A DNA stretch of 64,000 nucleotides, from the NCBI GenBank assembly GCA_964016885.1, contig OZ024743.1, positions 167,896,001 through 167,960,000 of the forward strand, read 5' to 3'. Source of the DNA: Eledone cirrhosa (lineage: Eukaryota). Below, in pieces: positions 2,480 through 63,682 of the stretch (positions are counted from its first letter, which is position 1; every line of letters begins with the position of its first letter). A program made the position numbers and the translations under genes. Below the pieces are notes generated by a model that did not search any database, was not told where the DNA came from, and saw only the letters and a list, made by a program, of their open reading frames with translations.

Positions 2480-2480
<1 letters not shown>
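2400..2480 (+). mobile_element. Tiny 3'-terminal fragment of a third Tx1-like family
   Basis: Ends AACCCTTGTGGTTAATAAAGAAAAT+(ATT)n, a variant of the Tx1 tail. Preceded by CCGTCCTGT as in the Tx1-B 3' UTR. Confidence 0.6.
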
Positions 2481-2512
<32 letters not shown>

Positions 2513-2514
<2 letters not shown>

Positions 2515-5500
2515 CTTGAATCTCAGTCATTGATGTTAGTTAACTGGAAAGTCCGTTGGAATGAATATCAAGCCACTACCTGCAGCCTCAGATATTCAGG
2601 ACGTATCGGAGGGTTCTTGCTGTTCCCAGCAAGCATGCCTTTTGAAGCGTTCCAAAAAGCGTGAAGGGGCCGATTTTCTTTAACCATCTCTGGAAACTTT
2701 TGGAGATAGTCCCCAGTGCGCCTATGACAATCGGGATCACTTTGACTTCATGGCAGTTCCAAATCCTTTTTACCTCCCACTTTAAGTCTTGGTATCGGTT
2801 AATTTTCTCCCTCTCCTTCTCTTGCACTCTTGTGTCGAATGGGCAGGCCACATCCACAATCAGACACGATCTTTTTTCTTTGTCCACAACCACCAGGTCA
2901 GGTCTATTGTGTTCCAGTTTCTTGTCCGTCTGTATCCTACAATCCCACAGCACCTTCACCTGATCGTTCTCCATCACCGCCTCTGGCTTATGCTCATACC
3001 ATTTCTCAGAATGTGGTAAATTGTTTACTTTGCACAGGTGCCAGTGGATCACCCTGCCCATCACATCATGTCTCCAGCCCTTATAGTGGGTCTGGGCTAG
3101 GTGTTTACACTCGGATACAATGTGAGCCAGTCTCCTCTCTCTCTCTCCACAGATCCTGCACAGTGGGCTAGCCTACTCCTTGTGAATATGGTGTTTCAAC
3201 CACTTCGTTTTGAGGGCCTGCTCCTGCGCAGCCATTAACATTCCTTCTGTAGCCTTTTTAAGGTCTCCTCTTCTCAACCAGTTCCATGTCTGTCGATCTC
3301 TAAATTCAGTTTTCTCAAAGAAGGTACTATGAAGGGATTTTTCCTGAAGGCTGCTTTTTCTCCTTGATGTTATTTCCTCCTTGGACATCCCCTGGCCTAT
3401 TGTCCCCTCCTTCAGTACAGTTCTGAGCATTGGCTCCTTACTATCAGTCACGTATTTGTGTAGGTTGTTTTTCTCCATCTGAACACAGTCCTCTATGCTG
3501 ATAAGACCTCTTCCACCCTCAGATCTCCTTAGGTAGTCTATCGACATCACTCCTCTTGTGGAACATGTTGTAGATAGTCAATAGCTTCCTAGTCTTCCTA
3601 TCCATTTCTTTTTGTTCAGCAACATTCCATCTCAGAATACCCGCACTGTACCTAATAATAGACACAGCTCGGGAATTTACTGCGCTTATGGCATTTCTGC
3701 TGTTCAGATGTGACTTCAATACGCTCCTTACACTCCGAATGTATACATTTCTTAACAATTCCTTCATTTTTTTTGTTCTTTATGCCATCAGCCTCCAGAA
3801 CGCCCAAATACTTGTATCCTTCCTCAGAGTCAATTTCCTTTATCATCTCACCTGTTGGTATCTGGATTCCGTTACTTCTGCTCAACCTACCAGTCCTCAT
3901 CACAATGACTCCACATTTACTAATACCAAACTGCATACATATATCACTGCTGAAAATACGGACAGTGTCAACAAGCACATCCAACTCCTTCTCACTCTTC
4001 CCGAAGAGCTTAAGATCGTCCATGAAGAGGAGGTGATTGATGGTAAGCCCTCCCTTTCCCAACCCGTATCCTGCTCTCACTTTTCGCAGTACACTGGTCA
4101 GGGGCATCAGGGCAAGGACAAACAACAGAGGGGACAGGCTATCTCCCTGGAAGATACCTCTCTTGATCTTCACGCTTCCCAAGGATTCTCCAGTTGATGT
4201 CAACTCTGTTTCCCAGGACCTCATACTCTTGCTCAACAACTGTCTGATGTTATCTGCCACCTTGAAGATCTCCAGGCTTTTGGTGATCCAAGAATGAGGC
4301 ACCATGTCGAATGCCTTTCTGTAGTCTATCCATCCCATGGCAAGATCAGTGTGTCTCCTCCTGCAATTCCCCATTACCATCTTATCAATAAGTAACTGGT
4401 CCTTTGTACCACGTGACTTCTTTCGGCATCCTTTCTGTTCGTCCGGTAACAAGTTGTTTGTGTGGAGGTGATGGTAGATTTCCTCAGACACAATGCTCGT
4501 CAACAGTTTCCACATTACGGACAGACATGTGATAGGTCTATAGTTGGTAACATCATTACCCTTGATTCGGTCTTTCATTATCAGAACTGTGGTACCTTTT
4601 GTCAACCACTCTGGTACCTCACCTGACATCAAGCAGTCATTGAACATGGTTGTCAGTTTCGGGTGGAGGGATGTTATATTTTTAATCCAATACCCCTGCA
4701 CACCATCTGGGCCTGGTGATTTCCAGTTGGTTAGTTTTTTGTCCTGCCCCTTAAGAGTTTCAACTGTGATACTCAAATCAGTTTTTTGGTGTGCTTGCTC
4801 ACCGATCTCCCTCTGTACTGTCTCAATCCACCCTGCCTGGTCATTATGTCTAACATCCTGCTCCCATATTCCTCTCCAGAATGTTTTAGTTTGTTCCGCC
4901 TCAGGGATCAAGTCGTTGCCTCTTTCTTTCCCCTCAAGCTGTCCAAACAGCATCTTCTGGTTGTTGTCGAACATGCGGTTCTGTTTATACTGACTGACTC
5001 TGTTCTCGTATCGCCTGATTTTTGCACTCTTTGCTACAATGCGTTGCTTCAGTTCCTCTATGATAATATTTAGCTTTTTCCTCCTAGTTTTGTACTTTAT
5101 TTCCAGTCTATTTTTAGTGCCTATGTTTTTTAGTGTCCCATTCAGTAGTGACTTAAGCTTTCCAATGTCATTTCTCATTTCCCTGATTTGACCACTCAGT
5201 CGTTTCTTCCACCAAGGCTCTTTCTTGTCTGTTGTTTCCCCTCGCTTTTATACCAAGTAGTTTCCTCACCGTATTTGCTGTTGCTTTGAGGATATTGTTG
5301 CACTGGTGAAGGCTCCTCGCCTCAAGGTATGGGATGACTTTGTTTACCTTAGCTGTTGTCTTTTAACTTTTTCCTGTCTACAAATCTTAGGTTCATAGGT
5401 CTCCCACTATCATTGTTCAATTCATCTACCACTAAATTTAGGATGTCAACCGAATCTTGTCCTAGCCCGTCAGCATTCATCTCCTCAGTGTCCGTATCTC

Positions 5501-7194
5501 TGTTCCAGGTATTATTTATCTCAGTATTCAGATCATTGTCTGCTTCGGGTGGTTCCTCCGTTCTCTCGACCTCTTCACCTTCATTTCCCACTGGCTCGTT
5601 TGCCTGGCATACTCCACCCTCCATCTCCAAGCTAATCTCTCTGCTCAGTTCCTCCAGTTCCAGCTCACTTGTCCAGCCATTAGTTCTTATTACCCGAGCC
5701 TGCCCGGCCAATTTTTGTTCATCTAATTTAAATAGACCAATCTCGTTCCAGATGTTATGCATCCGTCTCCTATAGCCCCTCTCCTTGGGGTTACTTTTCA
5801 TGTAACATTGCATAACAGTTCTATTCAATTCTTTCGTCCAGTTGGTTCTGGTCCCTTTCCTTCTTCTTCTTCCTCCGACACCAGCAGTATTTGGTTGACA
5901 GCCAGATTCCTGCTGCTGAGCCAGGGAGCACCTGTTGGGTGAGAGTCTGTCACATGACGTTCTAGTCTCCATTTCACCGTTATTCGAACTGTTTAGGTTC
6001 GATATTTAAACACTCTTATCGAGGATTGGCGAATGTATGGTTACATAACCATCTGTGGATTCACTGTCTCCGGTGGTTGCGTCACTCCACTTGGCACTTG
6101 TGTGGCATTATCACCACGCTGTAGACGAACACAAATAAACAAACAAACAAACAGGCAGAAAAAATCCCCAAAATGAATAAGCATAAGTTTCATTGTAATG
6201 TAGTGTTCGAATGTCTGACTTAGTTCTTCCCTTCTCTTCTCTGTCCGTCCGCTTGTTTCTCTCTTCATTCTTATTTTCTTTATGTTTTTTTTTTGTTTTT
6301 GTTTTTCTCTGCTTGTTTTTCTTTTTTTTTGTTGTTGTTGTTGCTGTGCTGCTTTGGTTTTGATTTTCGTTTTTTCTTTTGAGCCTATCTATATATTTTG
6401 ATGCCTTCCTCTTTTTTAGTAGGAATTCTTTAATGTGGTGTTGCTGCTGTGCTAGCAGCAACTAGCAGGAAGCAATGGGAGAGAATAGCGGCGGTAGCGA
6501 TACTGAGACAGTGGTGGTGGTGATGTCGATACTGAGGCAGTGGTGGTGGTGATGTGATCGTATTACTGTAGTGATGGTGTTGTAGCGGTGGTAGCAATGA
6601 AGGAGTGGTGGCGGCGGTGATGGGATAGTGGTAGTAATGATGGATGGGCGGCGTTGTCGTTACTGATGTCCGTTCGGTGAATCTATGGGGTTAGTCGCGT
6701 ACATGTGTTGACATAAATTCCCTTAATGTTGGAATTAAACATTTTGTTAAAACTTGGGACAATAATAATAGTATTTATTATTATCATTATTATGTTGAAA
6801 TTGGTTGTGGTGGTGGTGAAGTTGCCGTTATCTGGCTGTTGTGTTTAGTGTACACAGAGAGGTGATGGGGTAGATGGTGTATCTAGTTTCTGGTGTTCGT
6901 GAGATTGGTGTTGTTTGGCTGTTCTATATAGTGTAGACAGAGGAAGGGGGGGGGGGTTCTTCTTCCATTTATAGCCATTTTCTTTTTTGAATATACAATG
7001 TACAATACAAAGTTGAATATTTGAATATTTGAGTCTTATAACAATATATTTTGGGTCCGAATTTTTTGGAGGCTCAAGCCGGATGCTTTACGTAACATTT
7101 GTACTAAGAGTTGTTATTTCACAAATGATTTAAATATGTTAAAAATTCAAAACTTACGGGAGCGATTTCATGACCTTCTACCACCTCGTGCGTC
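2513..7194 (-). mobile_element. R4/Dong-clade RLE non-LTR retrotransposon, family 1, full-length but frameshifted
   Basis: ORF pieces 5349-5972, 3652-5178, 3519-3767, 3173-3550 and 2588-3064 give the N-terminal WTKELNRTVMQCY motif, RT ([37 protein letters not shown]), a CCHC and a restriction-like endonuclease (HNRPD..D..KINRY). There is a ~1.2 kb 5' leader, and the 3' end abuts (TAA)n. Confidence 0.92.
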
Positions 7195-7402
<208 letters not shown>

Positions 7403-8481
7403 TCCTTGAATCTCAGTCATTGATGTTGGTTAACTGGAAAGTCCGTTGGATTGAATATCAAGCCACTACCTGCAGCCTCAGATATTCAGGACGTATCGGA
7501 GGGTTCTTGCTGTTCCAAGCAAGCATGCCTTTTGAAGCGTTCCAAAAAGCGTGAAGGGGCCGATTTTCTTTAACCATCCCTGGAAACCTTTGGAGATAGT
7601 CCCCAGTGCGCCTATGACAATCGGGATCACTTTGACTTCATGGCAGTTCCAAATCCTTTTCACCTCCCACTTTAGGTCCTGGTATCGGTTAATTTTCTCC
7701 CTCTCCTTCTCTTGCACTCTCGTGTCGAACGGGCAGGCCACATCCACAATCAGGCACGATCTTTTTTCTTTGTCCACAACCACCAGGTCAGGTCTATTGT
7801 GTTCCAGTTTTTTGTCCGTCTGTATCCTAAAATCCCACAGCACCTTCACCTGACTGTTCTCCATCACCGCCTCTGGCCTATGCTCATACCATTTCTCAGA
7901 ATGTGGTAGATTGTTTACTTTGCACAGGTGCCAGTGGATCACCCTGCCCATCACATCGTGTCTCCAGCCCTTATAGTGGGTCTGGGCTAGGTGTTTACAC
8001 TCGGACACAATGTGAGCCACAGTCTCCTCTCTCTCTCCACAGATCCTGCACAGTGGGCTAGCCTCCTCCTTGTAGATATGGTGCTTCAACCACTTCGTTT
8101 TGAGGGCCTGCTCCTGCGCAGCCATTAGCATTCCTTCTGTAGCCTTTTTGAGGTCTCCTCTTCTCAACCAGTTCCATGTCTGTGGATCTCTAAATTCAGT
8201 TTTCTCAAAGAAGGTACTATGAAGGGATTTTCCCTTAAGGCTGCTCTTCCTCCTTGATGTTATTTCCTCCTTGGATATCCCCTGGCCTACTGTCCCCTCC
8301 TTCAGTACAGCTCTGAGCATTGGCTCCTTACTATAGGTCACGTATTTGTATAGGTTGTTTTTCTCCATCTGAACACAGTCCTCTATGCTGATAAGACCTC
8401 TTCCACCCCCAGATCTCCTTAGGTAGAGTCTATCGACATCACTCCTCTTGTGGAACATTTTGTAGATAGTCAATATCTTCC

Positions 8482-8482
<1 letters not shown>
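7403..8482 (-). mobile_element. Dong family 1, young 5'-truncated copy
   Basis: Open ORF 7478-8480 with [15 protein letters not shown] and RPD-type RLE; flanked by (TAA)n on both sides. Confidence 0.92.
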
Positions 8483-8540
<58 letters not shown>

Positions 8541-8551
8541 GTTATTGTTAT

Positions 8552-9457
8552 TCCTTGAATCTCAGTCATTGATGTTGGTTAACTGGAAAGTCCGTTGGAT
8601 TGAATATCAAGCCACTACCTGCAGCCTCAGATATTCAGGACGTATCGGAGGGTTCTTGCCGTTCCAAGCAAGCATGCCTTTTGAAGCGTTCCAAAAAGCG
8701 TGAAGGGGCCGATTTTCTTTAACCATCCCTGGAAACCTTTGGAGATAGTCCCCAGTGCGCCTATGACAATCGGGATCACTTTGACTTCATGGCAGTTCCA
8801 AATCCTTTTCACCTCCCACTTTAGGTCCTGGTATCGGTTAATTTTCTCCCTCTCCTTCTCTTGCACTCTCGTGTCGAACGGGCAGGCCACATCCACAATC
8901 AGGCACGATCTTTTTTCTTTGTCCACAACCACCAGGTCAGGTCTATTGTGTTCCAGTTTTTTGTCCGTCTGTATCCTGAAATCCCACAGCACCTTCACCT
9001 GACTGTTCTCCATCACCGCCTCTGGCCTATGCTCATACCATTTCTCAGAATGTGGTAGATTGTTTACTTTGCACAGGTGCCAGTGGATCACCCTGCCCAT
9101 CACATCGTGTCTCCAGCCCTTATAGTGGGTCTGGGCTAGGTGTTTACACTCGGACACAATGTGAGCCACAGTCTCCTCTCTCTCTCCACAGATCCTGCAC
9201 AGTGGGCTAGCCTCCTCCTTGTAGATATGGTGTTTCAACCACTTCGTTTTGAGGGCCTGCTCCTGCGCAGCCATTAGCATTCCTTCTGTAGCCTTTTTGA
9301 GGTCTCCTCTTCTCAACCAGTTCCATGTCTGTGGATCTCTAAATTCAGTTTTCTCAAAGAAGGTACTATGAAGGGATTTTCCCTTAAGGCTGCTCTTCCT
9401 CCTTGATGTTATTTCCTCCTTGGATATCCCCTGGCCTACTGTCCCCTCCTTCAGTAC
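8552..9457 (-). mobile_element. Dong family 1, young 5'-truncated copy
   Basis: ORF 8627-9316 has the same protein sequence as the preceding copy; flanked by (TAA)n. Confidence 0.92.
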
Positions 9458-9496
<39 letters not shown>

Positions 9497-9497
<1 letters not shown>

Positions 9498-9581
9498 TGC
9501 CTTTCATCCTTACGGTGTCGATAAAATAGAGTATCAGTAATGTACTGGGTAATTGCTGGCCTTGTGCCAAAAGTAGAAACA
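9497..9581 (+). mobile_element. tRNA-derived SINE, 5'-truncated
   Basis: GCCTTTCATCCTTACGGTGTCGATAAAATA core and GGCCTTGTGCCAAAAGTAGAAAC tail match the longer copies; (ATT)n on both sides. Confidence 0.85.
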
Positions 9582-9605
9582 ATTATTATTATTATTATTA
9601 GTATT

Positions 9606-12600
9606 GGTCTAAGCGGACGTATTTTGCTTGCTCACAGTAAGTCGCTTTATTTGCCTGTTAAAATTATTTGTTGTTAAATATTTCTTGTTGTGTAAGGGAT
9701 ATAAGCTCTTAGACTTTGCCCCGTGAAGGGGAAAGTATAATATTTGGGCCTTTTGGCCCGAATATTTGAACTTTTTTTTACATGTTAAAAAATTTACGAA
9801 GAAAAAAATCATGGCTGAGTCACGCCCCCCAGCGATATGTCGACTGTCGTGCGACAACGAAATAGCAGTTGAGAGGAGCGCTACAGTGAAATTAACACAC
9901 ATTGGTAACACAAACACCACCACAAACAAGGTAAACAAAGACACCAATGATACCAATAATAACTCTAATTTTGAAAAGAAATGACAGTAACAGCGACAAC
10001 GAAAATACAGATAACAAAAAAAAAGAAAAAATACAACAACAATATCAACACCACTAACATGAAAACAAATAGCGACAACACCAGCAGCAACAATAACAAC
10101 TGCACCGAGAACAACGGTGGCAACAAAGACAACAATGATAACAGCGACAGTGCTAACAACAACACCAAAAAGAACAACGACAACAACACCCCCAACGAAA
10201 ACAAGAAGAACACTTTCGCTGCGGCAGTAGCAAAAAAGAGGCCATGCATCAACATGGACCTCTCAAACAAAGATGAAAAGTTGGCCCAGGCATGGAAGCT
10301 CATCAAGCAAGAGCAAACTTGAGCCAACTTAACTGTCCCGGTAGAAGCTATTGAGGCAGTGGAGCGCAAAACGGTGCATTATAGATGCATCTCAGCACAA
10401 ACCAAAAGGGCAGCTTTAATCCCACAAGAAGATGTTGAAGTCGCGCTGAGGTGCATCAGAGAAGACACCCAGTACATAGAGAGGGGCAGACAGTACGGCA
10501 CCATTTCGGTGTTGTTCAAGTCAGAAGCCCTCGCTATGAAACACGCTATGACTCCTTGCAAAACCAGCAAGCTCATAATGTACCCCTCCCACATGGGAAA
10601 AAGAACGGCCCGTCTCCGCATTCCCAGAATCCCACCAGGACTTGACATGTGGTGGCTTCTGGGATGTGTGATTGTGGAGGGGACGGATACAGTCCCTATA
10701 GAAGTGACCAAAACGGCCAGAGAGGACTGGTCCGGGATTGACCTGGAGATCCTTCTCCGAGAATGTGAAGACAATTCCGGACCACATCCGCCTTCAGAAT
10801 GGGACGGTCATTCACATTATGACCGAAGGCAAAAGGCTGCAGTGTTTTGTTTGTGGGGAAAAACCCATTCGCGAGCCTTCTGCCCTCAACTGCTGAAAGA
10901 GGCAAGGGGTCGAAAGGCTCCACTGCTGCCGACGTCGGGGCGAGGACCACAACCAACACCAGCACCGGTAAAACCACCAACAACAACACCAACGGAAAGA
11001 CCACCACCAACATTGACCACCCAGGGGGGAAAGGAGGAAAGCTGTAAAATTCCCCCTCCCCCCAAAATTCACACACCAATAAAACCATAAACATACATAC
11101 AGACACACTTACAGACACAGACCCCTCATCTACCAGTAGTGAAAATGATGGAAATCCAAAATTCCCTTAAATACAAAAAAGGAAACACAAAAAGAAAAAA
11201 AAAACTCAACAAAGCACAAAAGCACCCACAATAAAAAAGGCAGACACAACCCACGCAAACATCTCTCCAATAACACCAACATCAACACCACCATCACCAT
11301 CACCAGAATCCCCCAAATTAAACAACCGAAACAGACGCAAGAACAAATATACACACAAACATCTGAAACCACAGACACCGCACTCACAACAAACACAGAT
11401 ACAACCGAAACAACACCACCAAAACCATCACCACCACAGCCACGCAAACAAATAAAATCACACCAACAAAGCATACAAAACTTCGTGCTCGTCAGGAGGG
11501 CCAACAAGGAACTGATGGCCCTCGTAGCACGAAGTGAAAATATACAAAAAGAGGGGGAAATTTTTAAATCGAGCACATTTCGCGTGCCGGAAGATTTGGT
11601 TCTGGTGCGAATGTCGCTCGAGATATTCAAAGAAATACGAGACAGCTTTCCTCGGGACGTGGGAACCCCGAACGTAAAACCCACTTCAAGACTTTTAAAG
11701 GGGTTCCCAAAAGAAACCCCACTAACTATGGAAGTCGAACAACCCGACCTTCACAAGAGCCCGGAAGGTAAGTTAACCTTCCTCCCTCTCTGTTTAACCT
11801 GCCAACATGGCCGTATTAAGAGTAGGATGTTTAAATGTTCGAGGCCTGGGATCGGCCTGCTCAATGACCTCAGGTCTATAGAAATGGATGTAATTGCCGT
11901 CTGCGAGACCAGGATTTCCGACACACGCGCACTAGCCCCCATTTTCGACGACTATCAGATCTTTGCATCTGTTAGCCGGCCGGGAATGGGAGGCGGGGTG
12001 GCAGTGCTGTTTAGGAAAGGCCTGGATCTCGAGGTAAGGTCGATCTTCCCGGACCCGGACAGGAAGTTGGTGGTCCTGGACGTGAACAATAACGAAGGTG
12101 GTGCCTTTAGACTGGTGGCCGTCTATGCTCCTACTGGGGCAGGGCGGCTGGACTTCTTTAGACGCCTGGAAGCCTTTCTGGGTACGTTTCGCCTTTTACT
12201 GTTAGCGGGGGACTGGAACGGCATCTTATACGCACGCTGGGACTGTGTGGGAGTATTCGATAGGAGCCGGGGGTGCAAAAGCCTCAAGAACCTGATCAGC
12301 CAGTTCCAACTGTCTGACAGGTACCGACTAGATTTCCCTAATGCACCAGTGTGGACCTGGGCTAACCGAATAGGGTCATCTAGATCGTATATAGACAGGA
12401 TATTCATTATGAAAATAGACAGAAATAGTGTAAGCTGTCCACGTTTTGAAACGGTTGCCTATTCAGATCTGTTTGTGATCTGTATGATCGACCTAGATAA
12501 GACGCGTAGGTTAGGACCTGGTTACTGGAAGACGAGGCTATTGGTAGTGGCATTGCAACTGATGTGCTAGCGGCGAGAATGGCATTAGACCATTTCTTCA

Positions 12601-15234: not shown

Positions 15235-18200
15235 GGAAGTATACACGTCGCAGGAATATTGTTCCCGTAAGCTTGTGATTTTTGAACAGTTTTTATTGCG
15301 AACTTAATGTAAAAATCATATTGTCTTGTGTTGAAACACACCCCATTTCTTTTGAAGTTGTCGAAAATAATCGGTATTTAACCCTTCGGGGCTAAATCCC
15401 AATTTGAACTTTGCATCTAGCAAACAGAAATCTCGCAAAAAGAAAAATGGCGTCATTCAAAAAATCCATTTCCATGCCGTGTATTCACTCAAAAATTACT
15501 CTTTCAGCAAGATATCCTCCTCAACCTTTTTTTTTTCGTCCAGCTGTCAGAGTGGAGTCTCGCTTTCCTTTTCGTCTTCTTCACCGTCCTATAGTCAAGG
15601 GAATGCCGCCACTCCCCTCTCTCTCCTCCATCAAGCAGCAGTCGTGAAGTGGCTACTACTGATACATTTGATACATTTGAAATCAAAGGAACTAGCAACA
15701 GTCAGAATGGAGTCTCGCTTTCCTTTTCCTCTTCTTCACCAAATAGCAAAAGTCAGACGAATTCCACTCTTTCCTCTTCACCCAACGGCAATCTTGAAGC
15801 GGCTGCTGCTGACACATTTAACAACAAGGGAGATAGCAGCAGCAACGGCAGTATTAAAAATAACACCTGTGGTAGCGGTAGTGGCGGCAGGAGCAGCAAC
15901 ACCAACAACACTGTTTGTAGCTGTGACAACAACAACAACAGCACCGGCATCACCAACAACAAGACCAGTAGCAGCAGTAGCGGTGGCAACAATGACGCCC
16001 CTGAAAAAGCGACCACCTCTTTTGCAAAAATAACTCGCAACGTAGAAACATTCATGATCATAGAGGAGGAGATGGCGGTCGCAAGACACATGGTAACCAG
16101 AACTAAATTTTCAGTGTCCTTGAAACCACCAACCGACTTCCTGGAGGAACAAGAGCGACGCCCAGTGTCGTACCGCACGATTGCCACGAAATTGCATCGT
16201 GTGGAGAAAGCCTCGGAGGCCGAAATCCAGAAGGCCTTGGGAACTGTGTGGGCATGGAAAACCCACATCACCCGTGGCAAGAAATATGCTACTGTGGACG
16301 TCCTTTTTGCTACCACCTAGGAAGCAAAATCGCACTCACTGAGGACCCTACGGAGTGATGACATAACCTTAGTCCCGTTTTATTGCGGGAAAAAAATTGC
16401 AAATGTCAGGGTAACACAGGTCCCGCCCTACGTACCCGTGCCTTGGTTGGTCGTGTCTGTTCTTGGTACAGAAGTTGGGGGGAGAGGACTGGTCCGGTAT
16501 TGGAATGGAGATGCTCATCCAAACCGACCAGGACTGCATCAGCGCTATTCCCGACGTAATAGACATCGGGAATGGCTCCCAACTTCCCATATCTGTTGAA
16601 GGAAGGCGCCCAAAATGCTTCAACTGTGGATCAAAGTCTAACCTCAGGGCTTTCTGCCCACAGAAAATAACAAAGACCAAGGTCACCCTCCTTCCAACGC
16701 CAGAACCGCTGCCATCAGAAACAGAGCAGTCAGCGAAAAAGTTGGGATCTTCTACAGAGAATAAGAAGACAACGTCCGTAAAACCCACACCAAAGCCACG
16801 GACATCAAAACAGCGACGGTAGCTGCAGCAACAGAAACAGTTGCACTAGCTGCACCTGTGCCAGGAGCGGCAAACCAGGCTCCACCACCACCACCACAAA
16901 CAACAACAACAAAGACAAATGAGAGGGTAGAACTCATAGCCCTCTCCGACCTCTCACAGTCGGACATGGAGTATGAGGCGGCTGAGGAGTGGAAAACGGT
17001 TGTTAACTAAAAAAACAAAACAAACGAAAAAACACCAGCATCACCAAAAACACCAACATCGCAAACACAACAAAGCACACATACCCAACAGCAACAACAA
17101 GAAACCCCCCCCCCCCCCCAAAAAAAATACACAGCCATAAACATTGCACACCAAGGACTAATGGAACACATAAAACACCACACCGATATTTCAGACGTAA
17201 ATTACTACACACCACCAACACCAAGAACATTGCCAAAAAACATTAATATTGTAGAAATTGAACTCGAAAACTACAAACAATTAAAACAAAAAATCCCCAA
17301 AGTAGTTGGGGATTTCGGGGGGTCACTCCCCAAAAGAATCTACAAAGATATCGTTTTGGAAACACCCATGACCAGCCGAGGGGACGGTTCTACTGTCCCT
17401 TCCCCACACGATCAAGGTAAGTGACCCTTTCTCACTTGCCTCGTTCCTCATCCAACATGGCCTTACTTAGGCAGCATAAATGCACGTGGCCTGCATCTTG
17501 GAAGCTGAGTCACCTGCTCAACGACCTCAGGTCACTAAACATAGATGTGGTGGCCATCAGCGAGACCAGAATCTCCGAAGCACGAGCCTTTGCACCGATC
17601 TTCGGCGGCTACGATGTATACGCATCTCCCAGCCATCCTGGATCGGGGGGCGGAGTTGCTGTGCTTTTTCGGACAGGCTTGGATCTCGCCATACCGGCCA
17701 TCTTCCTGGACCCAGAAAGTAAGTCGGTGGTGTTGGACGTGACTGTCAGCGAAGGCAATGATTTCAGGCTAGTAGCCATCTACGCCCCAACAGGGGCAGG
17801 ATGGCCAGATTTCTTCAGACGTCTAGAGAACTTTCTTGGCGCGACTGGAACGGAATCTTAGATGCACGCTGGGATTATGTGGAGGATGTAAAATCCTTAA
17901 CAACCTGCTCAGATGTTTTGAAATGTCTGACAGGTATAGACTGGATTATCCGAATGTACCAATGTGGACATTGGCAAACCTTATCGGGTCATCCAGATCG
18001 TATTTAGATAGGGTATTCTGTAGGGAAACAGATAAGGCTAGTGTAAGTTGTCCACTATTTAAAGTAGTCGACTACACGGCCCAAAAATTCATTACCTGTG
18101 AGGTTGACTTAGATAGACTCCATAGGCAAGGACCCGGTTACTGGAAGCTGAACGCGTCGTTCCTGGCGCGCAAAGCTTACAGAAACCGGATTAGCTAACT

Positions 18201-20688: not shown

Positions 20689-20730
20689 ATTATTATTATT
20701 ATTATTAGTAGTAGTAGTATTATTATTATT

Positions 20731-20914
20731 GGTGGATTGGCAGTATCGGTAGAGGGTCATACGTCATGCTTTGCAGCATAGAGTTACGGCCCTTTACGGT
20801 CTGAGTTCAAATCCCGCCGAGGTTAACTTTGCCTTTCATCCTTACGAGGTCGATAAAATAAAGTACCAGTAATGCACTGGGATAATTGATGGCCTTGTTC
20901 CAAAAGTAGAAACA
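20731..20914 (+). mobile_element. tRNA-derived SINE (central domain resembles the Meta-SINE type)
   Basis: A box TGGCAGTATCGGT, B box GAGTTCAAATCCC, core ACTTTGCCTTTCATCCTTACGAGGTCGATAAAATAAAGTACC, then tail and (ATT)n. Confidence 0.88.
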
Positions 20915-20931
20915 ATTATTATTCTTATTAA

Positions 20932-25311: not shown

Positions 25312-25345
25312 ATAATAATAATAATAATAATTATTATTATTATTA

Positions 25346-28085
25346 CAGTTGCATTTATCTTGCTTTATGTTCATACGAATTATCACCAAATCACAACCAG
25401 TGACCTCAAGAAACAACAAGGTTCGCCATGTTCAAGAAAGAACATACATACACACAGATGCATCTTTAGGTGTTTAGACTTGTGATGTACTTATATTGAC
25501 ATAATCTTCCTTAGTATATGGGCAGTTCCCATTAGTACTATCTTTTGTATTTCTCCTATATGCGGGTTTCCTGCGATAAGTAATCATTACACTCCTTAGG
25601 TATCATTCCTAGAGCACCTACAAATACTGGTATTGTTTTAGTTCTCAATTTCCACATTTTTCCAATTTCTATCTCCAGGTCCTTATACTTGCTCAATTTT
25701 TCAAATGTTTTTATAGATACATTCTTATCTATTAGAACGGACATATCAATTAGCAGGCGTACCCTGTTTTTAAAGTCCTTCACTATTATATCAGGTCTAT
25801 TTTTATCTATTTTTCGGTCTGTTTGGATGCTAAAGTTCCATAAGATTGAGATGTGATCTTTTTCAAGTATGGGAGGTGGTTGATGCTCCCGCCAATTCTT
25901 TTGATAGGGCAGGTCAAAATGCTTACACATTATCCAATGTATGTATTGTGCCTGTCATGCCTGTTTAGGTATTCGGTTGGAGCTACAGGACTGCACATTG
26001 AAATTATATGATCAATGGTCTCTGGGTGTTTTTTTACATACACGGCATAATGGGTTGCATCCATTTTTTATTATGTTGGCTTGATAATATTTTATTGGCA
26101 GACACTGATCTTGTGCTGATATAATCAGTCCTTCAGTCTCCGATTTCAGTCCAGAGGATGCCAACGACTGGTGGGTTAAAGTTTTGTCAACATCAGGATT
26201 GTTAACTCTTTCTGGGTATTTTCCATACAGAGGCTTTTCTTGCCATTTCTTAGCCAGTTTCTGTAGCAGTTCTTTCTTTGCAGTTACTTTTACCTGCTTT
26301 GCTTTTTCTGTGTTTTCCATTTCAGCAGTAAATGGGACTTCTGAAATTTGTAGTCCATTACTGTATCTTTGTGCATCTTTTGTAATGGAGTATGATCTTT
26401 TGATGCTTTCGTGTTTCAAAACGAGTTTGATCATCCAATCATGTGCTTCCCTTAGATATGTAGATAATCCAATTGTTGCAGTTTTCAACACAATATCTAA
26501 CTGGATTAACCCACGTCCTCCTTCTTTCCTAGAGAGATATATTCTATCTATATCTGCCTTAGGGTGATGCATTCTGTGCATGGTTAAGCATTTTCTAATT
26601 TTTGTATCGAGCCTACGGATCTCTGTGCTTGACCAGTTGATGACATTGTAACTGTAGGTTACTACTGGTATGACAAGCGTGTTTATGGCATCGATCCTAT
26701 TCCTTGCATTCAATTCCGTTCTTAAGATTGCTCTTACTCTGCGGTAACATTCCTTCCTTATCCTTTCCCTCATTGTCGAGTGCTTGATTCCGTCTCCTTC
26801 ACAAACACCTAGATATTTGTAAGTTTCCTCCTGATCAAGTTCTCTTATCACATTCCCCCGATCAAGATTAATGTCTGAACTTTTCAGTAGCTTTCCTGTG
26901 GTGAACGTTGCTTTGGCGCATTTATCTAGTTCAAACTCCATTTTAATGTCATCACTGAACTGCTTCACAGTGGATAATAGCCCTTGCAATTGTTCAACAT
27001 TTTTTGCAAATGTTTCAGGTCATCCATGTAGAACAAGTGATTAAAGGTTTTGTCATAGACTTTATTTCCATGTTTTGTTTCATTGAGCATTTTACTTAAA
27101 GTGCGATGCAGAATAAAAGCTGTGATAAAGAGTCACCCTGAAATATTCCACAATTAATATTAACCTCTCCAGCTTCCAGTGATTTTTTCAGTATTCGAAA
27201 GGAGTGTCGTTTTCCATTTCTTCATACTGAATGACAGGAACCTCTTGACAACGGGAGATATTTTGAAAATCTCTAAACATTTTACAATCCAACTGTGTGG
27301 CAAACTATCGAATGCTTTTTTATAATCTATCCAAGCAATTGATAGATTTTTGTGTCTATTATGACAATCTTCCAGTATCATTTTGTTAACCAAAAGCTGA
27401 TCCTTACAGCCATATGAGCCTCGTTTACGCCCTTTCTGCTCATTTGGAAATAGGTCATTTTTTTATCAGGTGGTCATATGTATATTCAGTTAGGACTGAT
27501 GTTAAAATTTTATACATTGTGGTCAAGCAAGTTATCGGTTTGTAATTTTGGGGATTGTTTGTCTCATCATTCTTCGGAAGTAGGAATGTAATGCCGTTAA
27601 TTAGCCATGATGGTATCTTTTCTGGCTCCTTAACTATTTCATTGTAAAGTTGGGCTAACAGCTCATGAGACTCTGTGAAGGCATTTATCCAAAAATTTGG
27701 TATTTTGTCTTTGCCTGGGGATTTCCATTTGCTGGTTTTTCTTAGAGCCAAACGCAACTGTTCAACTGTTATATTTTCCCATATTTGTTCCTTAAGGTGA
27801 GCTTTATCTTTCATGTGTCTGTATATCCATGGGGCATGTATATTATGAACTTTTTCTTCGGCCCAGATCTTTTCCCAGAATTCTTGCACTTCCTCCTTGG
27901 GTGGTATTGATTTAGCAGTTATTGTTGACTTGCCAATATTTCTGTAGAAGTTTCTTTGGTTGTTTTTGAACATATTATTGTCCTTATAGAATCTAGATCG
28001 TTTTTCAAAGCGCCTTATACGAGCAGCTTTAGCCGACACTTTTTGCTTGATTATTTCTATCAGCATGTGACATAGATGTCACTTG
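25346..28085 (-). mobile_element. R4/Dong family 2, 5'-truncated, degenerate
   Basis: ORFs 27455-28066, 27160-27393, 26012-26989 and 25556-25930 contain [37 protein letters not shown] and NRPD..D..KLSKY. The 3' end lies in (TAA)n. Protein and 3' UTR are distinct from family 1. Confidence 0.9.
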
Positions 28086-38129: not shown

Positions 38130-41100
38130 CTTGTTTATGCTTACAACTGTTTCCTCCAAACCGAGGTTTGGATTCTTCGGAGCAATTTATTAATGAATGA
38201 ACACTTATATGACCCCCTTTTCACCCAAGAGCCATACAGATACATATGCAAATATTGTGGGTCAACATTCATTACAGCATTTAGAGTGGCAGTACACACT
38301 TAGAGATTACATTCATATTAAAAGATACAATCAAAATACAGGTTAACATACAACATGAAAATAAGCAGTTATATAGTGCAAAGGTTATATGTGTGGCAAG
38401 CACGTGCGTCTTGTTTATATAGTGTGGCAGAGAGTTACGTGTAGTAGAAGCACTTAAGTAGGTAAACAAGAGTGTTAGGTTGGTTGATCTGGTGACAAAT
38501 TCTTTATATGATTGTTATAGTCTGTGTGTGGAGAAATAATATAAGCATTAAAAATATTGCAAGCATTAAAAATATTAAAAATATTGGAAATGCGCAGCGG
38601 AGGGATGATATGGACTTCATGTACTTCGACATTTTCATAGTCTGGGGAGTGTATTTTTCAGATTATATGCCCCTCACATAATCCACGACGATTCGATATT
38701 GAACGTTTGACAATCCAGTTAGAGAATCGTAGTCTGATGTTCTTTAGTTCAATACAGGAGGATGTTACGTTTCGAGGATCGACATCGAAATACTACCCGG
38801 AAGTGTGTGTGTGGCTAAGGGGAGTTAATGCATGAGGGGAGGTAACTCGGAGGTTTCTATTACTAACTATTAAAATGTGTCTCAAAATAGACCCTAACTT
38901 TTATGGTTATACGCAATTTCTAAAAAATTTCTAAAATTTAAAGTGTTTTAACTATAGAGTAGTCTATTAAGTTGTGCTGAAGGTGTTCGTATTATTATGG
39001 TGATTAACCCCCATCGTAGAGAGCCACAAATGAATATTATAGACGACAAGCGAGGATTCTAAATTAATTATCTCTGTGGTTGCAGTCTACTCAAAGGACC
39101 AGGCGCGGTGATTGCAGAATCACTTCAACACACAATGATCTCTGGTAAGTTCTGGGTCATCGCTTGCTACATTGGATGTCGAAAGATAATCATCACCAGG
39201 GCCGACCAGAGGTCAATCCGCAGTCCTCATGACCCCAATCTTACCATCAAATCATCCATATATGTACAACCCATACGCCACCTGCAACACATTCATTCGC
39301 TGCACTCAGCGTACCGGTCATACAGATCATCAGCGTTACTAGATTAATTCGTTTTTCATCTGTCCAACGATGGCACTTCCTCCGCACAACACTACCAAGA
39401 CAATCAATTCATGCTTAAATTACCTATAGAGCGGTTCAAGTGGGTGGATGTTGTCACACCTAAAGTAGAGGTACAAATGGGTATTCGCCCTGCGAGGGGT
39501 TCTAGAGGGATGTCGCTGTTTGTGTTATATTAGATCAGTGAGTGTTGGGTATGTGGTATAAGGTGTGCCCCTGGTGTTTGATGCTAGAGGTGGCGTTTGG
39601 TTCAAGTCTGACATTGCTATATATTGGGCTTAAAGTTTTGGAAGGAATGTCTGAAGCGGTGCTGTCAAGTTGCAAACACTTCAGATTTTTTGTTAAGTAG
39701 GTTACGGTTAGAGAAGATAATATTGTGGGTCTCTAGTATACAGAGGTTACAAAATTTATTAGGTGGTTTGTACGAAGTCGCGCTGCCTATCACTTCCCAT
39801 TTGAGTGTGTAAGGTTTATATTTAGTTTTTATATAGTGTATGTAGCTAGATAGTGAGGTGGAGTTGGCTAGACTGTGCTTTTTGAACGAGTGGATGTGCG
39901 AATTATATCTGATTTTGAAGCAGTTAGAAGTGGAGCCTACATACGTTTCTGAAGAGTTGCTAGTTGTGACGGTGCATGAGTATATGATATCCTTGGTTAG
40001 GCATTTTTTAGGTTCTATTAGCTCTACAGTTACAATTATCCTGTGTGTTAGTCTGCTGGTTATAATGCAGTGCAGAAGTCTGGGTGGTAGCTATAGGATT
40101 TTGGACATTCGGGTTGTCGACTCCGGTGTTATTTCTTATACTAGTGTTATTTCTATTGTTACTGCCGTTACTATGGTTGCTTGCTACAGAGGTATTTAGA
40201 AGGTTTACCTCCTGTTGTGAATTCGTTTGTTGGAAGTAAGAATTAATTTTACTTTTATTGCTGCTAGCTATGTGGTATGCTAAGTTAGGCGTCGTAGAGT
40301 ATGAGATTTTAATAGTGTTTTTGTTTAAAAGGTTGTGGTACTTGTGTCCTAGAGGGAAGTTTTTATCTAGTAGTGAGAAGAAAGCCCTAGGTATGTTGGT
40401 GGAGACATTTAGGTTGAAAGGAGGGTTGAAAAATGTATTATTTCTTCTTCTATTTTTGTTTTTAGTGTCTGGTGTGTTGTTTCTTCCTAAGGCACTACGG
40501 TAGTTTCCGTGGTAATGGTTACTTCCGGTGGCACCCTCCGCTTTGTTGTACTTGTGGTTGCTATTCCTATTATTAGGTTTCCTCATGGACATGTTGTGCG
40601 AGATGATGTTGTAGCTATGCGTTTTCTTAGGTAGGAACTCAATTTCTATATTATGGCCGGATCTAGCTAATGCTTGATTATAATATTGTGAGTTTTTGCT
40701 AAATATGTTTGCGTCATAGGATAGATTAGAGATTCTATTGGATACCCCCTTAGAGATAGAGTTTAATATTGATCTAGGGTGATTAGACTTGGTATCTACG
40801 TAAATGAGTTTTCCGTTAGGCTTATGGAAAGGTGTATTTTGAGTCTAGGTATAGTGTGGCGTCTAGGAAGTTAACATTTTTAGTGTTTTTGTCCATGGTG
40901 ATACTAAGGTTAAAGTTTTTGAATGTCCTGTGCAATAGTTTTCTAGTTCTTTCTATATTAATTTTTTTATATTCTATAAGTAGAAGTGCATCATCGCGGT
41001 ACAAACCACCGTTGAGGTAAGGGAGGTCCTTTTGGATTTCATTAAGAAGGTATAGGCCGACCAAATCAGTGACCTGCGCCGAGTCACTAGATCCCATGGT

Positions 41101-41260
41101 TATGTCGAAGTTGTGCGTATTCCTGCGTGTCCATAGTTGGTCCTCGAAGGTGATTATGGTTTTACGGGCCGCAAGGATGACATCAATCTGGGCTCTAGTC
41201 AGGTCGCTATTGTTCATGGCCATGATTAGTGCCTTATAATTCATATAACTGCTCTGTAAA
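38130..41260 (-). mobile_element. Penelope-like element, 5'-truncated (RT, linker, C-terminal GIY-YIG, long 3' region)
   Basis: ORF 40822-41244 has TMGSSDSAQVTDLVGLY, GGLYRDD and VNFLD. ORF 40008-40592 has FFNPPFN, KISYST and NCNCR. 39690-40005 reads CLTKDIIYSC..ETYVGST..FKIRYNSH..CNLC. Hammerhead at the 3' end. Confidence 0.88.
38138..38184 (-). ncRNA. Type I hammerhead at PLE 3' end (U4>C variant, probably impaired)
   Basis: Minus strand reads TGCT-CCGAAGA-A-TCCAAACC(tc)GGTTTGGA-G-GAAA-CAGTTG-TA-AGCA. Confidence 0.65.
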
Positions 41261-41416
41261 TCATCTGATGTTTTTACATTGAGCTACTTACTGGTAATAA
41301 GGTAGTAATATATTACTGCCTACCACTATTTAGGGTTTATATATATAAAAATATATATAACTGCAAAAGGTTCTTGTATTTACATAACCATAAATAGTAT
41401 AATTAATACTAATTAA

Positions 41417-51195: not shown

Positions 51196-51263
<68 letters not shown>
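50410..51263. repeat. Microsatellite cluster (GT)n, (TA)n, (GTA/GTT)n, (TTA)n
   Basis: Read directly. Confidence 0.95.
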
Positions 51264-51264
<1 letters not shown>

Positions 51265-51449
51265 GGACGGTGGATTGGCAGTATCAGTAGAGGGTCGGAC
51301 GCCATGCTTTCTAGCACAGTTACGTCCCTTTACGATCTGAGTTCAAATCCCGCCGAGGTTGACTTTGCCTTTCATCCTTACGGGGTCGATAAAATAAAGT
51401 ACCAGTAATGCACTGGGTAATTGCTGGCCTTGTGCCTAAAGTAGAAACA
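51265..51449 (+). mobile_element. tRNA-derived SINE, full-length
   Basis: A box TGGCAGTATCAGT, B box GAGTTCAAATCCC, core and tail; (ATT)n on both sides. Confidence 0.88.
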
Positions 51450-51487
51450 ATTATTATTATTATTATTATTATTATTGTTATTGTTAT

Positions 51488-54400: not shown

Positions 54401-55984
54401 CGTCAGCATTCACCTCCTCAGTGGCCGTATCTCTGTTCCAGGTATTATTTATCTCAGTATTCAGATCATTGTCTGCTTCGGGTGGTTCCTCCGTTCTTAG
54501 GACTTCCTCACCTTCATTTCCCACCGGCTCGCTTGTCTGGCATACTACACCCGCCATCTCCAAGCCATTCTCTCTGCTCAGTTCCTCCAGTTCCAGCTCG
54601 CTTATCCACCCATTAGTTCTTATTACCCGAGCCTGCCCGGCCAATTTTTGTTCATTTAATTTAAATAAACCAATCTCGTTCCAGATGTTATGCATCCGTC
54701 TCCTGTAGCCCCTCTCCTTGGGGTTACTTTTCAGGTAGCATTGCATAACAGTTCTATTCAATTCTTTCGTCCAGTTGGTTCTGGTCCCTTTCCTTCTTCT
54801 TCTTCCTCCAACATCAGCAGTATTTGGTTGACAGTCAGGTTCCTGCTGCTGAGCCAGGGGGCACCTGTTGGGTGAGAGTCTGTCACATGACGTTCTAGTC
54901 TCCATTTCACCGTTATTCGAACTGTTTATGTTCGATATTTAAACACTCTTATCGAGGATTGGCGAATGTATAGTTACATAGCCATCTGTGGATCCGCCAT
55001 CCCACTTGGCCCTTGTGTGGCATTATCACCACGCTGTATACGAACACACATAAACAAACAAACACACAGGCAGAAAGGGCCCCAAAAATGAATAAGCATA
55101 AGTTTCATTGTAATGTAGTGTTTGAATGTCTGACTTAGTTTTTGTTTTTTAAGTTTTACTTTTTCCCCCCTCTTCTCTGTCCGTCCGCCTGCTTCTCTCT
55201 TCATTCTTATTTTCTTTACGTTTTTGGGGTTTCTTTTTTTATTTTTGTTTTTCTCTGTTTGTTTTTCTCGTTTTTGCTGTTGTTGCTGTGCTGCTTTGGT
55301 TTTGTTGTTTGTTTTTTCTTTTTTCTTTTGAGTCTATCTATATATTTTGATGCCTTCCTCTTTGTTAGTAGTAGGAATTCTATAATGTGGAAGTAGCAGC
55401 CAGCAGGGGGAAGTGGGAGACTGGCGGCGGTAGCGATACTGAGACAGTGGTGGTGGTGATGTCGATACCGAGGCAGTGGTGGCGGTGATGTGACCGTATT
55501 ACTGTAGTGATGGTGCTGTAGCGGTGGCAGTAGTGAAGGAGTCAAGGGGTGGTGGCGGCGGTGATGGGATAGTGGTGGTAATGATGGCCGTAGTGAGCGG
55601 TGGCGGTGAAGGTGAAAATGTCGTTATCTGGCTGTTGTGTTTAGTGTACACAGATGATGGGGTGGGTGGTGTATCTAGTTTCTGGTGTTGGTGAGTTTAG
55701 CTGTCCTATATAGTGTAGCCAGAGGAGAGGAAGGGGGGGGGGGGGTTCTTCTTCTTCCATTTATAGCCATTTTCTTTTTTGGATATACAGTGTACAATAC
55801 AAAGTTGAATATTTGAATATTTGAGCCTTATAACAATATATTTTGGGTCCGAATTTTTTGGGGCTCAAGCCGGGTGCTTTACGTAGCATTTGTACTAAGA
55901 GTTGTTATTTCACAAATGATTTAAATATGTTAAAAATTCAAAACTTACGGGAGCGATTTCATGACCTCCGTCACCTCGTGCGTC
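51488..55984 (-). mobile_element. Dong family 1, full-length young copy (one stop at 53763, small deletion near 53500)
   Basis: ORFs 53763-54905, 53460-53702 and 51563-53491 (642 aa: RT, CCHC, RLE). Leader 54906-55984 is homologous to 5973-7194. Confidence 0.93.
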
Positions 55985-56032
55985 TTCTTCCCTTATTCTT
56001 CTTCTTCTTATTATTATTATTGTTATTGTTAT

Positions 56033-62484: not shown

Positions 62485-63682
62485 AATGATATTAAATAAA
62501 TGGAAACTATATTTATAAAACCATATTTATTCTATTATATATATTTCAAGGGTTCCAAAAACGTTGGTATGCTTTCATCAAATAAAATACAAAGTGTGTT
62601 TTATAAATTTTTGACATAGCCAAGGAAACATACCTTATCAGTTGAATTTCCCTTGGATAGTGATTTTAAAGGCGGTTTTTTTAAACATTCACATTTCTTT
62701 CGATTAAATAATTAATTAATCTCACACTAATTCTTAAAAGATTTATCGATTAACAAACAAAATTGGAGTTATCTTTCCTTTCTCTATCTAACTCTGTTAA
62801 TTTAAAACATTCTCAAAGCCGAACAAGATATTCAAATATATATAAATTCATAATTTTAACTACCTATTTATTTACATAAAATACAAAATCAACTTACTCG
62901 TAACTCATTATTTACATAAAATACAAAATCAACATCCCACGTAACTCATATTATAAATAACCACCTAAAACATAAACTACCTATTTATTTATTTATTTAT
63001 CTACATAAAACACAAAATTAATATCCCTCGTAACTCATATTATAAACAACTAATAATAATACATATGCTATTATTAAAATATATATATATTGAGTTCAAA
63101 TCCCGTTGAGGTTAACTTTGCCCTTCATCCTTATGGGGTCGATAAAATAAAGTACCTCTAATGCACTGGTGAATTGCTGGCCTTGTGCCAAAAGTAGAAA
63201 CAATTATTAAGATATAGTTATTTATATATTTAACCCACTACAATATTATAAGATAAATACTTACAAACATAATTCTCCATATAAATATATACATAATATA
63301 GGTAAATATTCAATTTTTTCCCCTAACTTAACGTATATAAGTGGTGTTTTTCTTTTTCTTTTTCCTCTTTCTTTTTTTATTTTTTTCGCTCCTACTCATT
63401 TTTTATAAACTTTCAATAGCTTTTAAAATAACGGTTTTTTCAATCATATAACTCAACCTCATTTACATATTCATTTGCATACTCATCCTAAAATATTGAA
63501 AAATCCTTTCTTTAAATTCACTATCCAAGTGAAATTCAACTGATCAGGTATGTTTCCATGGCTATGTCAAAATTTATAAAACACATTTTGTATTTTATCT
63601 GATGAAAGCGTACCAAAGTTTTTGGTACCCTTGAAATATATATAATAGAATAAATATAGTTTCCATTTATTTAATATCATTG
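62484..63682. mobile_element. Non-autonomous TIR element with ~180 bp terminal inverted repeats
   Basis: 62484-62670 is the reverse complement of 63512-63682. The AT-rich interior partly resembles 61280-61550. Confidence 0.78.
63091..63202 (+). mobile_element. tRNA-derived SINE, 5'-truncated, nested in the TIR element
   Basis: B box GAGTTCAAATCCC, core, and tail GGCCTTGTGCCAAAAGTAGAAAC+ATTATT. Confidence 0.85.

Follow-up and report, generated by a model that had tools for sequence, protein, structure and literature searches.

Within the window, the 64,000-nt stretch of DNA analyzed here, an RLE-type element designated Dong-A lies on the minus strand from about 7202 to 2514 with (TAA)n tracts on both sides, and its 5' end raises the question of how an element with a single ORF came to begin like a Tx1 element. 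The reading we favor, at a probability of roughly three in four, is that this one-ORF RLE element carries a Tx1-homologous leader that was captured once, long ago, together with some downstream sequence, and that likely acts as an internal promoter. Confidence is higher in the homology of the leader than in its function as a promoter. The features on which the argument draws are the following.

7203 to 7403, minus strand: (TAA)n target microsatellite, then a (GAA)n run (element strand), directly 5' of Dong-A
6979 to 7202, minus strand: Tx1-type leader of about 225 nt, likely captured, putative internal promoter (profile, alignment, tree)
7149 to 7167, minus strand: core motif AATCGCTCCCGTAAGTTTT, candidate promoter element that includes a splice-donor-like GTAAGT (conservation, genome count)
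7008 to 7090, minus strand: decayed remnants of two Tx1 leader hairpins, with the TTCAACTTTG motif at the end (alignment, folding)
6966 to 6978, minus strand: two upstream ATGs (6978, 6968) at the site of the Tx1 ORF1 start, with only short frames
6476 to 6965, minus strand: A/C-rich non-coding stretch common to Dong-A and Dong-B
6372 to 6413, minus strand: Lys-rich frame KRKASKYIDRLKRK without a linked ATG
5973 to 6130, minus strand: likely native R4 5' UTR (by-eye reading)
2588 to 5972, minus strand: single Dong-A ORF encoding RT, CCHC knuckle and RLE; in the window copy it is split among three frames
2480 to 2587, minus strand: 3' UTR and (TAA)n tail of Dong-A
54906 to 55992, minus strand: leader and 5' region of a second full-length Dong-A copy
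25312 to 28068, minus strand: 5'-truncated Dong-B copy, 93-95% identical to loci L043-L048
9606 to 9813, plus strand: Tx1 leader of type T2, through the ORF1 ATG
15235 to 15449, plus strand: Tx1 leader of type T1, through the ORF1 ATG

The preliminary description had classed the element as RLE-type Dong, and the domain content bears this out. As in the RLE-type R4/Dong clade, the single ORF combines an RT, a CCHC knuckle and a C-terminal endonuclease; it matched RVT_1 without Exo_endo_phos (no APE), and its RT was nearer to R2 structures (2e-25) than to L1 ORF2p structures (3e-14). We take the CCHC and the RPD..D..KY.DL pattern to be the knuckle and a PD-(D/E)xK-type RLE endonuclease, respectively. 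Insertion into TAA microsatellites was reflected in the TAA tail and in (AAT)3 within 40 nt upstream of 25/30 Dong copies, (ATT)3 being present there in 0/30. Among the 120 homologues listed, 118 carried no informative name and the other two were uncharacterised shrimp proteins; Dong-A is provisionally assigned to the R4/Dong type by the order of its domains and by its TAA target rather than by a phylogeny that includes named elements. By eye, a GTGATRRTGYCAC-like motif (6117-6100) was also seen ahead of the ORF of other, leaderless R4 families.

The elements on the donor side are assigned to Tx1 (L1 superfamily) by their ORF and domain content, with a zinc knuckle in ORF1 and APE and RT in ORF2; within the window, Exo_endo_phos matched 11149-12567 and zf-RVT matched 551-1789. 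A search of the genome (3.0 Gb) with a back-translated ORF1 motif gave 232 matches compared to 0 for the control, and the collection of leaders from these loci and from the neighbours of other loci resulted in 11 types (T1-T6, T8-T11 and the T2-like L111). The ORF1 core was found in T1-T6, T8, T9 and T11, while T10 shows a knuckle and the start of an APE. All types follow (ATT)n, begin mostly with G and present the same order of parts, namely a GCTC..GTAAG-type motif at about +35, then hairpins, then TT.AAC.TTT and, roughly 205-225 nt from the start, an A-rich ATG. The ORF1 cores fell into two groups that are approximately 28% alike, and since T2- and T6-type leaders each occur on both groups (L116 and L124 versus L064 and L129), Tx1 families swap leaders, which are therefore not strictly inherited in Tx1. 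T1 leaders were also found in tandem, with a unit of about 200 nt (L033, L034, L096), like the monomers of mouse L1.

Comparison of Dong-A with these leaders partly confirmed what had been observed earlier. The named motifs were present at their sites (GCTCCCGTAAGT at 7163-7152, CAAATATTCAACTTTG at 7023-7008, the A-rich ATG at 6978), as was the Lys-rich frame at 6413-6372; the second Dong-A copy starts with the same module, its motifs repeated from 55992, and the Tx1 counterparts were found at 9606-9813 and 15235-15449. On the Dong leader the parts follow each other in the Tx1 order of G start, GCTC..GTAAG, T-rich run, TT.AAC.TTT and A-rich ATG. The module itself stands, but its start had been set at 7194 and the usual start lies 8 nt further out, with GGGAAGAAGAC at 7202; GCTCCCGTAAGT is at +32 counted from 7194 and at +40 from 7202. 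This start, which can be written GGGA(A/T)G, was common to 28/40 copies sampled by the core motif and merges with the GAA run in the window copy. The best 40 genome matches of the leader were 97-100% identical.

A search of the leader against Tx1 5' ends and a comparison with shuffled controls had been proposed in the preliminary description, and both favored a genuine likeness. The 225-nt Dong leader (7202-6979, minus strand) is colinear with all 11 Tx1 leader types of the same genome. Global alignment to four T1 leaders gave z values of 4.5-7.2, with 0/1000 dinucleotide shuffles as high in each case, and T1 aligned to T2 leaders with a similar z of 4.1-5.9. On a Tx1-only profile built from 20 Tx1 leaders of 7 types, the leader of the window copy scored a weak 13.1 bits, above 2000/2000 shuffles, and the four Dong leaders examined ranged from 13.1 to 22.3 bits (15-22 for the young forms besides the window copy); for the two Dong leaders tested by shuffling, 0/2000 shuffles scored as high with or without the 30-nt A-rich end. 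True Tx1 types that were withheld from the profile gave comparable values (22-37 bits for T1, 8-22 for T3), whereas T2, T5, T6 and T8 scored far higher (42-84 bits). Among 27,186 real 225-nt windows, a repeat-rich background without chosen host promoters in which known leaders were masked, five reached 13.1 bits; four of these correspond to one more old leader piece and one is unrelated.

Older forms of the leader were considerably more Tx1-like than the young ones. A search for other R4 families gave 210 matches, of which 40 were examined, and revealed an older relative of Dong-A, termed A2; the leader copies of this form agree with one another at 92%, those of young copies at 99%. All 30 A2 leaders scored between 25.7 and 49.9 bits on the Tx1-only profile (mean 38.1), whereas 30 young copies reached a mean of 15.6, which includes one row at -34.8 bits that is likely mis-cut, and a maximum of 19.3; the variant form was represented by only 1/30 leaders in this scoring. 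Aligned end to end with Tx1 T6, A2 shared 140/202 aligned bases (z 8.8-9.6) and it retains the hairpin-1 segment that is gone from young copies. Relic leaders matched the 23 Tx1 leaders searched by BLASTN at 72% over 122 nt (E 5e-12), 71% over 129 nt (7e-10), 71% over 122 nt (3e-10), 78% over 65 nt (1e-8) and 71% over 100 nt (5e-6), and the Tx1 types matched by these single copies were T6 or T10. In a tree of 35 leaders, 12/12 R4-borne leaders formed one branch (support 95/93, stem 0.13) among the Tx1 leaders, whose types have stems of 0.14-0.40; within the R4 branch, the oldest forms were basal and the young forms at the tip, in a tree that is unrooted and was given a midpoint root only. Because the likeness of R4 leaders to Tx1 rises with age, descent is favored over convergence. 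The direction from Tx1 to R4 is suggested by the greater diversity on the Tx1 side and by the position of the leader before a real ORF1 in Tx1 only.

This graded series of older, more Tx1-like leaders supports the capture of a Tx1 5' end that had been proposed, but a neighbour in the window as the donor is not supported, as the closest types, T6 and T10, lie elsewhere and are only about 70% identical. The donor search, consisting of patterns and DNA searches of the genome, yielded more Tx1 types and older R4 forms and no donor family; the pattern of the R4-type leader in its oldest form had 7 genome matches, none of which leads into a Tx1 ORF1. The exact R4-type leader was not seen on any Tx1 family, which leaves the donor missing and the closest similarity at approximately 70% identity, in AT-rich DNA. 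At 4/8 loci with the oldest form of the leader no R4 ORF adjoins, and the oldest joins of leader and R4 sequence, all of them single copies, may be chance neighbours.

What has been kept of the leader differs markedly from what has been lost. Conservation across seven R4 forms peaked at 0.94 over 7167-7153 and fell to 0.50-0.62 in the hairpin region, which in the leader of the window copy also contains an 8-nt duplication (7031-7024). The stem that had been described in the leader was not borne out: the Dong leader forms no stable hairpin (z -0.3 to -0.85; +1.0 to -0.86 across the seven forms). None of the 7 R4 forms folded below z -1, the window copy being at +1.0, compared to 7/12 Tx1 leaders below z -3. 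The R4 forms lack the two stable hairpins of Tx1 leaders, of which sequence traces persist in the old forms; the consensus fold of the 12 Tx1 leaders comprised only 3 pairs. Since the DNA motif was kept, the RNA structure was lost and the start is common to the copies, we infer that the captured leader is likely Dong's own internal promoter. Searches for a ribozyme identified no Rfam family at 8 loci and an HDV-like pattern in 0/11 leaders, the latter with a crude descriptor that had no positive control. The idea of an snRNA-type promoter was dropped, as the 400 nt upstream of 3 U2 genes (of 20) held no match to the 16-nt motif with up to 5 mismatches. The U2 snRNA genes form a tandem array with a period of approximately 2.2 kb at G000:C3:307349256-307453739 (L321-L338).

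GTAAGT is the intron side of the 5' splice-site consensus. It is among the best-kept letters of the leader, and this leaves room for a different account, in our judgment an unlikely one, according to which the Tx1 5' end was captured but kept for another job, as a U1 site against early polyadenylation of the A-rich RNA or as a translation or processing signal, in elements that could be read through from host transcripts. Conservation, however, also covers TCGCTCCC ahead of GTAAGT, and the Tx1 types T4 and T5 alter GTAAGT yet retain GCTCC. Most copies (28/40) moreover share one 5' start, and neither an Rfam family nor an HDV-like pattern was found that might cut the leader from a longer RNA.

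The preliminary description had ascribed the capture to this family. The event is old, and several R4 lineages now carry the leader. Exact copies of the 19-nt core motif number 1,994 in the genome, against 0 for its reversed control; the first-look candidate counts of 2290, 2388 and 1927 overlap and are not copy numbers. Forty of the first 100 listed core-motif matches were chosen blind to the sequence downstream, which contained a Dong-A-type ORF in 28 cases, a Dong-B ORF in 10, neither in 2 and a Tx1 ORF1 in 0. Even though the proteins of Dong-A and Dong-B are only 35.7% identical over 893 aa, their young leaders are 98.8% alike, and the common stretch extends to window position 6476, with the Dong-B copies lacking approximately 6807-6644. 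A comparison with Dong-B, the second Dong family, had been suggested and was carried out, but it cannot serve as a control because the same leader sits on Dong-B. By a crude word test, the young form of the leader was on 14 Dong-A and 1 Dong-B copies, the variant form on 7 and 7, and the A2 form on 4 and 1; as each of the three forms occurs on both families, the exchange of leaders was repeated. Leader-bearing ORFs were found on both sides of the deepest split in an R4 tree of 24 rows, several of which are less than half filled; the 6 leader changes in this tree are not a count of losses, as many of the rows without a leader are 5'-truncated.

Such mobility might be expected if the leader were a free-moving module, either a SINE-like head or sequence from a third source, that was joined to Tx1 and R4 alike, an explanation we consider less probable than a kept secondary function. 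Leaders do cross Tx1 ORF1 groups that are only 28% alike as well as R4 families, T1 leaders occur as tandem repeats and 4/8 oldest-form loci are without a linked ORF; on the other hand, 38/40 sampled core motifs lead into an R4 ORF, the solo copies share neither a 3' end nor a tail and have been interrupted by later insertions, and in 11/11 Tx1 types, despite their deep diversity, the spacing between leader and ORF1 ATG is the same.

Two further R4 families have 5' ends of their own. The old family D (L264, L275, L280), in which the leader was detected at 1/25 loci, contains GCAGTAAGTT in an unrelated 5' region, and the GTAAGT motif is thus present in three kinds of R4 5' end. Family E (L238:250-1500 in element orientation, L242, L256) has a layered 5' end of approximately 1.5 kb, whose first module, marked by GGACG..GCTCCCCACAAG, is followed by two monomer-like repeats, one of them with GAGTAAGTTTTG, and by an A-rich ATGG and an A/C-rich stretch; no leader was found in this family (best score 7.1 bits among 1,560 windows from 30 loci), and its 5' end is possibly an independent capture from another LINE. 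Because a GTAAGT-type motif is present in these unrelated 5' ends, a short motif of this kind may recur by convergence. Convergence of the whole leader, in which the Dong and Tx1 5' ends would independently have gained a host promoter motif or a U1-binding GTAAGT together with its spacing and start context, is the least probable of the accounts considered, since the weak scores of young copies (13-22 bits), the recurrence of the motif in families D and E and the missing donor are outweighed by older R4 leaders that are more Tx1-like than young ones, the opposite of what it predicts, by 120-200 colinear bases that are alike and include the hairpin segment missing from young copies, by the lack of a profile score in the 5' ends of families D and E, and by the absence of the core motif upstream of 3/3 U2 genes checked.

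Downstream of the leader, the 1,006 nt from the ATG at 6978 to the Dong-A ORF are A/C-rich, like Tx1 ORF1 starts, and had been read as an ORF1-like relic. This reading found no further support, as the likeness is one of composition and position, with neither homology nor a kept frame. The longest frame from the upstream ATGs was 47 codons in 31 copies, with free frame drift; comparison with 17 Tx1 ORF1 regions, by BLASTN and by alignment in three frames, gave forward scores that did not exceed those of reversed controls (protein means 64.0 and 64.9), and a profile of the ORF1 core returned a best E of 2 against 114 frames of the stretch. Coding constraint in young copies was rejected as well, as the shift at a poly-C tract spreads the copies evenly over the three frames (10, 8 and 10 of 28 well-anchored copies, after 3/31 mis-anchored rows were dropped), and the Lys-rich frame is interrupted by an internal stop in Dong-B. 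Two old copies have open Thr/Asn-rich peptides of 53 and 66 codons from the second ATG, and the third-position excess between them was not significant (14/32, p 0.14). Since Tx1 ORF1 starts cannot be aligned even among themselves, it is plausible, though unproven, that the stretch derives by decay from the low-complexity beginning of such an ORF1. One strong BLASTN match to ORF1 turned out to be the tail of a SINE within the Dong-B 5' UTR. This short SINE-like repeat resides in the same microsatellites (window 9496-9605, 20689-20930, 51221-51473 and 63091-63209); its tail is fixed in the Dong-B 5' UTR, and AAT runs within the 5' regions of Dong elements contain whole copies of it (L026, L166).

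The capture had been attributed to a microsatellite niche shared by both elements. Niche sharing alone is not sufficient to make a chimera, because Tx1 and Dong are oppositely oriented on (TAA)n. At 4/4 adjacent Dong/Tx1 junctions the two elements point in opposite directions, and on this ground read-through from a neighbouring Tx1 is rejected; a same-orientation junction of Dong within Tx1 was not found in 1.5 Mb (0/4 junctions). AAY runs were present in 12/17 Tx1 ORF1 starts and pure (AAT)3 in 0/17. In several old copies, as read by eye, the A/C-rich stretch passes into R4 sequence at an AAT run. Two routes to the chimera can be envisaged. The reverse transcriptase of an R4 element might have switched template onto a Tx1 RNA, or a 5'-truncated R4 copy might have inserted into an AAT/AAC (Asn-codon) run of a Tx1 ORF1 start, which would be the only place where R4 and Tx1 share an orientation. 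A transcript from the Tx1 promoter would then have spanned the R4 body, and the R4 3' end would have primed reverse transcription of the whole chimera. Thereafter the core DNA motif would have been under selection for driving transcription, the hairpins of the Tx1 RNA and the ORF1 start, useless to the R4 protein, would have decayed, and further recombination may have handed the leader to other R4 families. A promoter of its own would free the element from the read-through-plus-ribozyme route of Bombyx Dong and might help to explain its high copy number.

Related exchanges have been described. In mammalian L1, a young 3' body takes on a different 5' end, which acts as its promoter; the recruitment is likewise repeated, with 11 replacements in mouse, and L1 families that resemble each other in the 5' UTR do not form monophyletic groups (PMC3600994). 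In L1 the exchange takes place among L1 families or from unknown sources (PMC3600994), whereas here it would lead from an APE-type Tx1 to an RLE-type R4 without ORF1. The Drosophila R2/R1 hybrid SIDEs also join the 5' end of one endonuclease class to the 3' end of the other, and the RLE reverse transcriptase of R2 jumps templates in vivo (PMC3414825). SIDEs are rare, short elements that are not autonomous, and their ribozyme comes from the RLE partner (PMC3414825), while Dong-A represents an autonomous RLE element with the leader of the APE partner in approximately 2,000 copies. Dong of Bombyx mori and R4 of Ascaris have the same single ORF with RT, C-terminal RLE and TAA-repeat target (PMC3774820). 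Both carry a 5' HDV-like ribozyme, a feature that is not known to be clade-defining, and Bombyx Dong uses it for self-cleavage from a co-transcript (PMC3774820); here none was found and a Tx1-type leader is present instead. The exchange of ORF1 in the Jockey superfamily similarly involves 5' modules that move between LINE lineages with a tree-like ORF2, but it remains within one superfamily and concerns a working ORF1 (PMC4120745), unlike the present case, which crosses superfamilies and in which ORF1 was not kept. Our literature searches turned up no earlier description of an R4 element with a Tx1 leader, a point on which Repbase entries, subscription papers and supplements may bear.

Non-LTR transcription is described as poorly understood (PMC3774820), and an autonomous RLE element that likely gained its promoter from an APE-type LINE bears on RLE transcription outside the rDNA. 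It would also extend recruitment of 5' ends in the style of L1 across superfamilies, and the role of the 19-nt core motif is open to direct test. On the broader proposition that a ribozyme-dependent RLE lineage took a Tx1 promoter, that this promoter spread through R4 lineages that are about 36% alike and drove the expansion of Dong-R4, and that dated intermediates of the process are still readable, we consider the odds to be even. In Octopus vulgaris, Dong-R4 exceeds all other LINE types in the number of recently active insertions (1,129; PMC13282606), and if the genome studied here is that of an octopod, the captured promoter is a candidate cause of this high activity.

Two additional arrangements were noted in the window. 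Two ORFs on the minus strand at 40011-41283, with no Pfam match for 40011-40844, resemble a Penelope-type RT and its downstream region. Two 5'-truncated Dong-A 3' ends (7363-9457) that are 99.7% alike precede the full-length copy as a head-to-tail stack, each in the TAA tail of the other.
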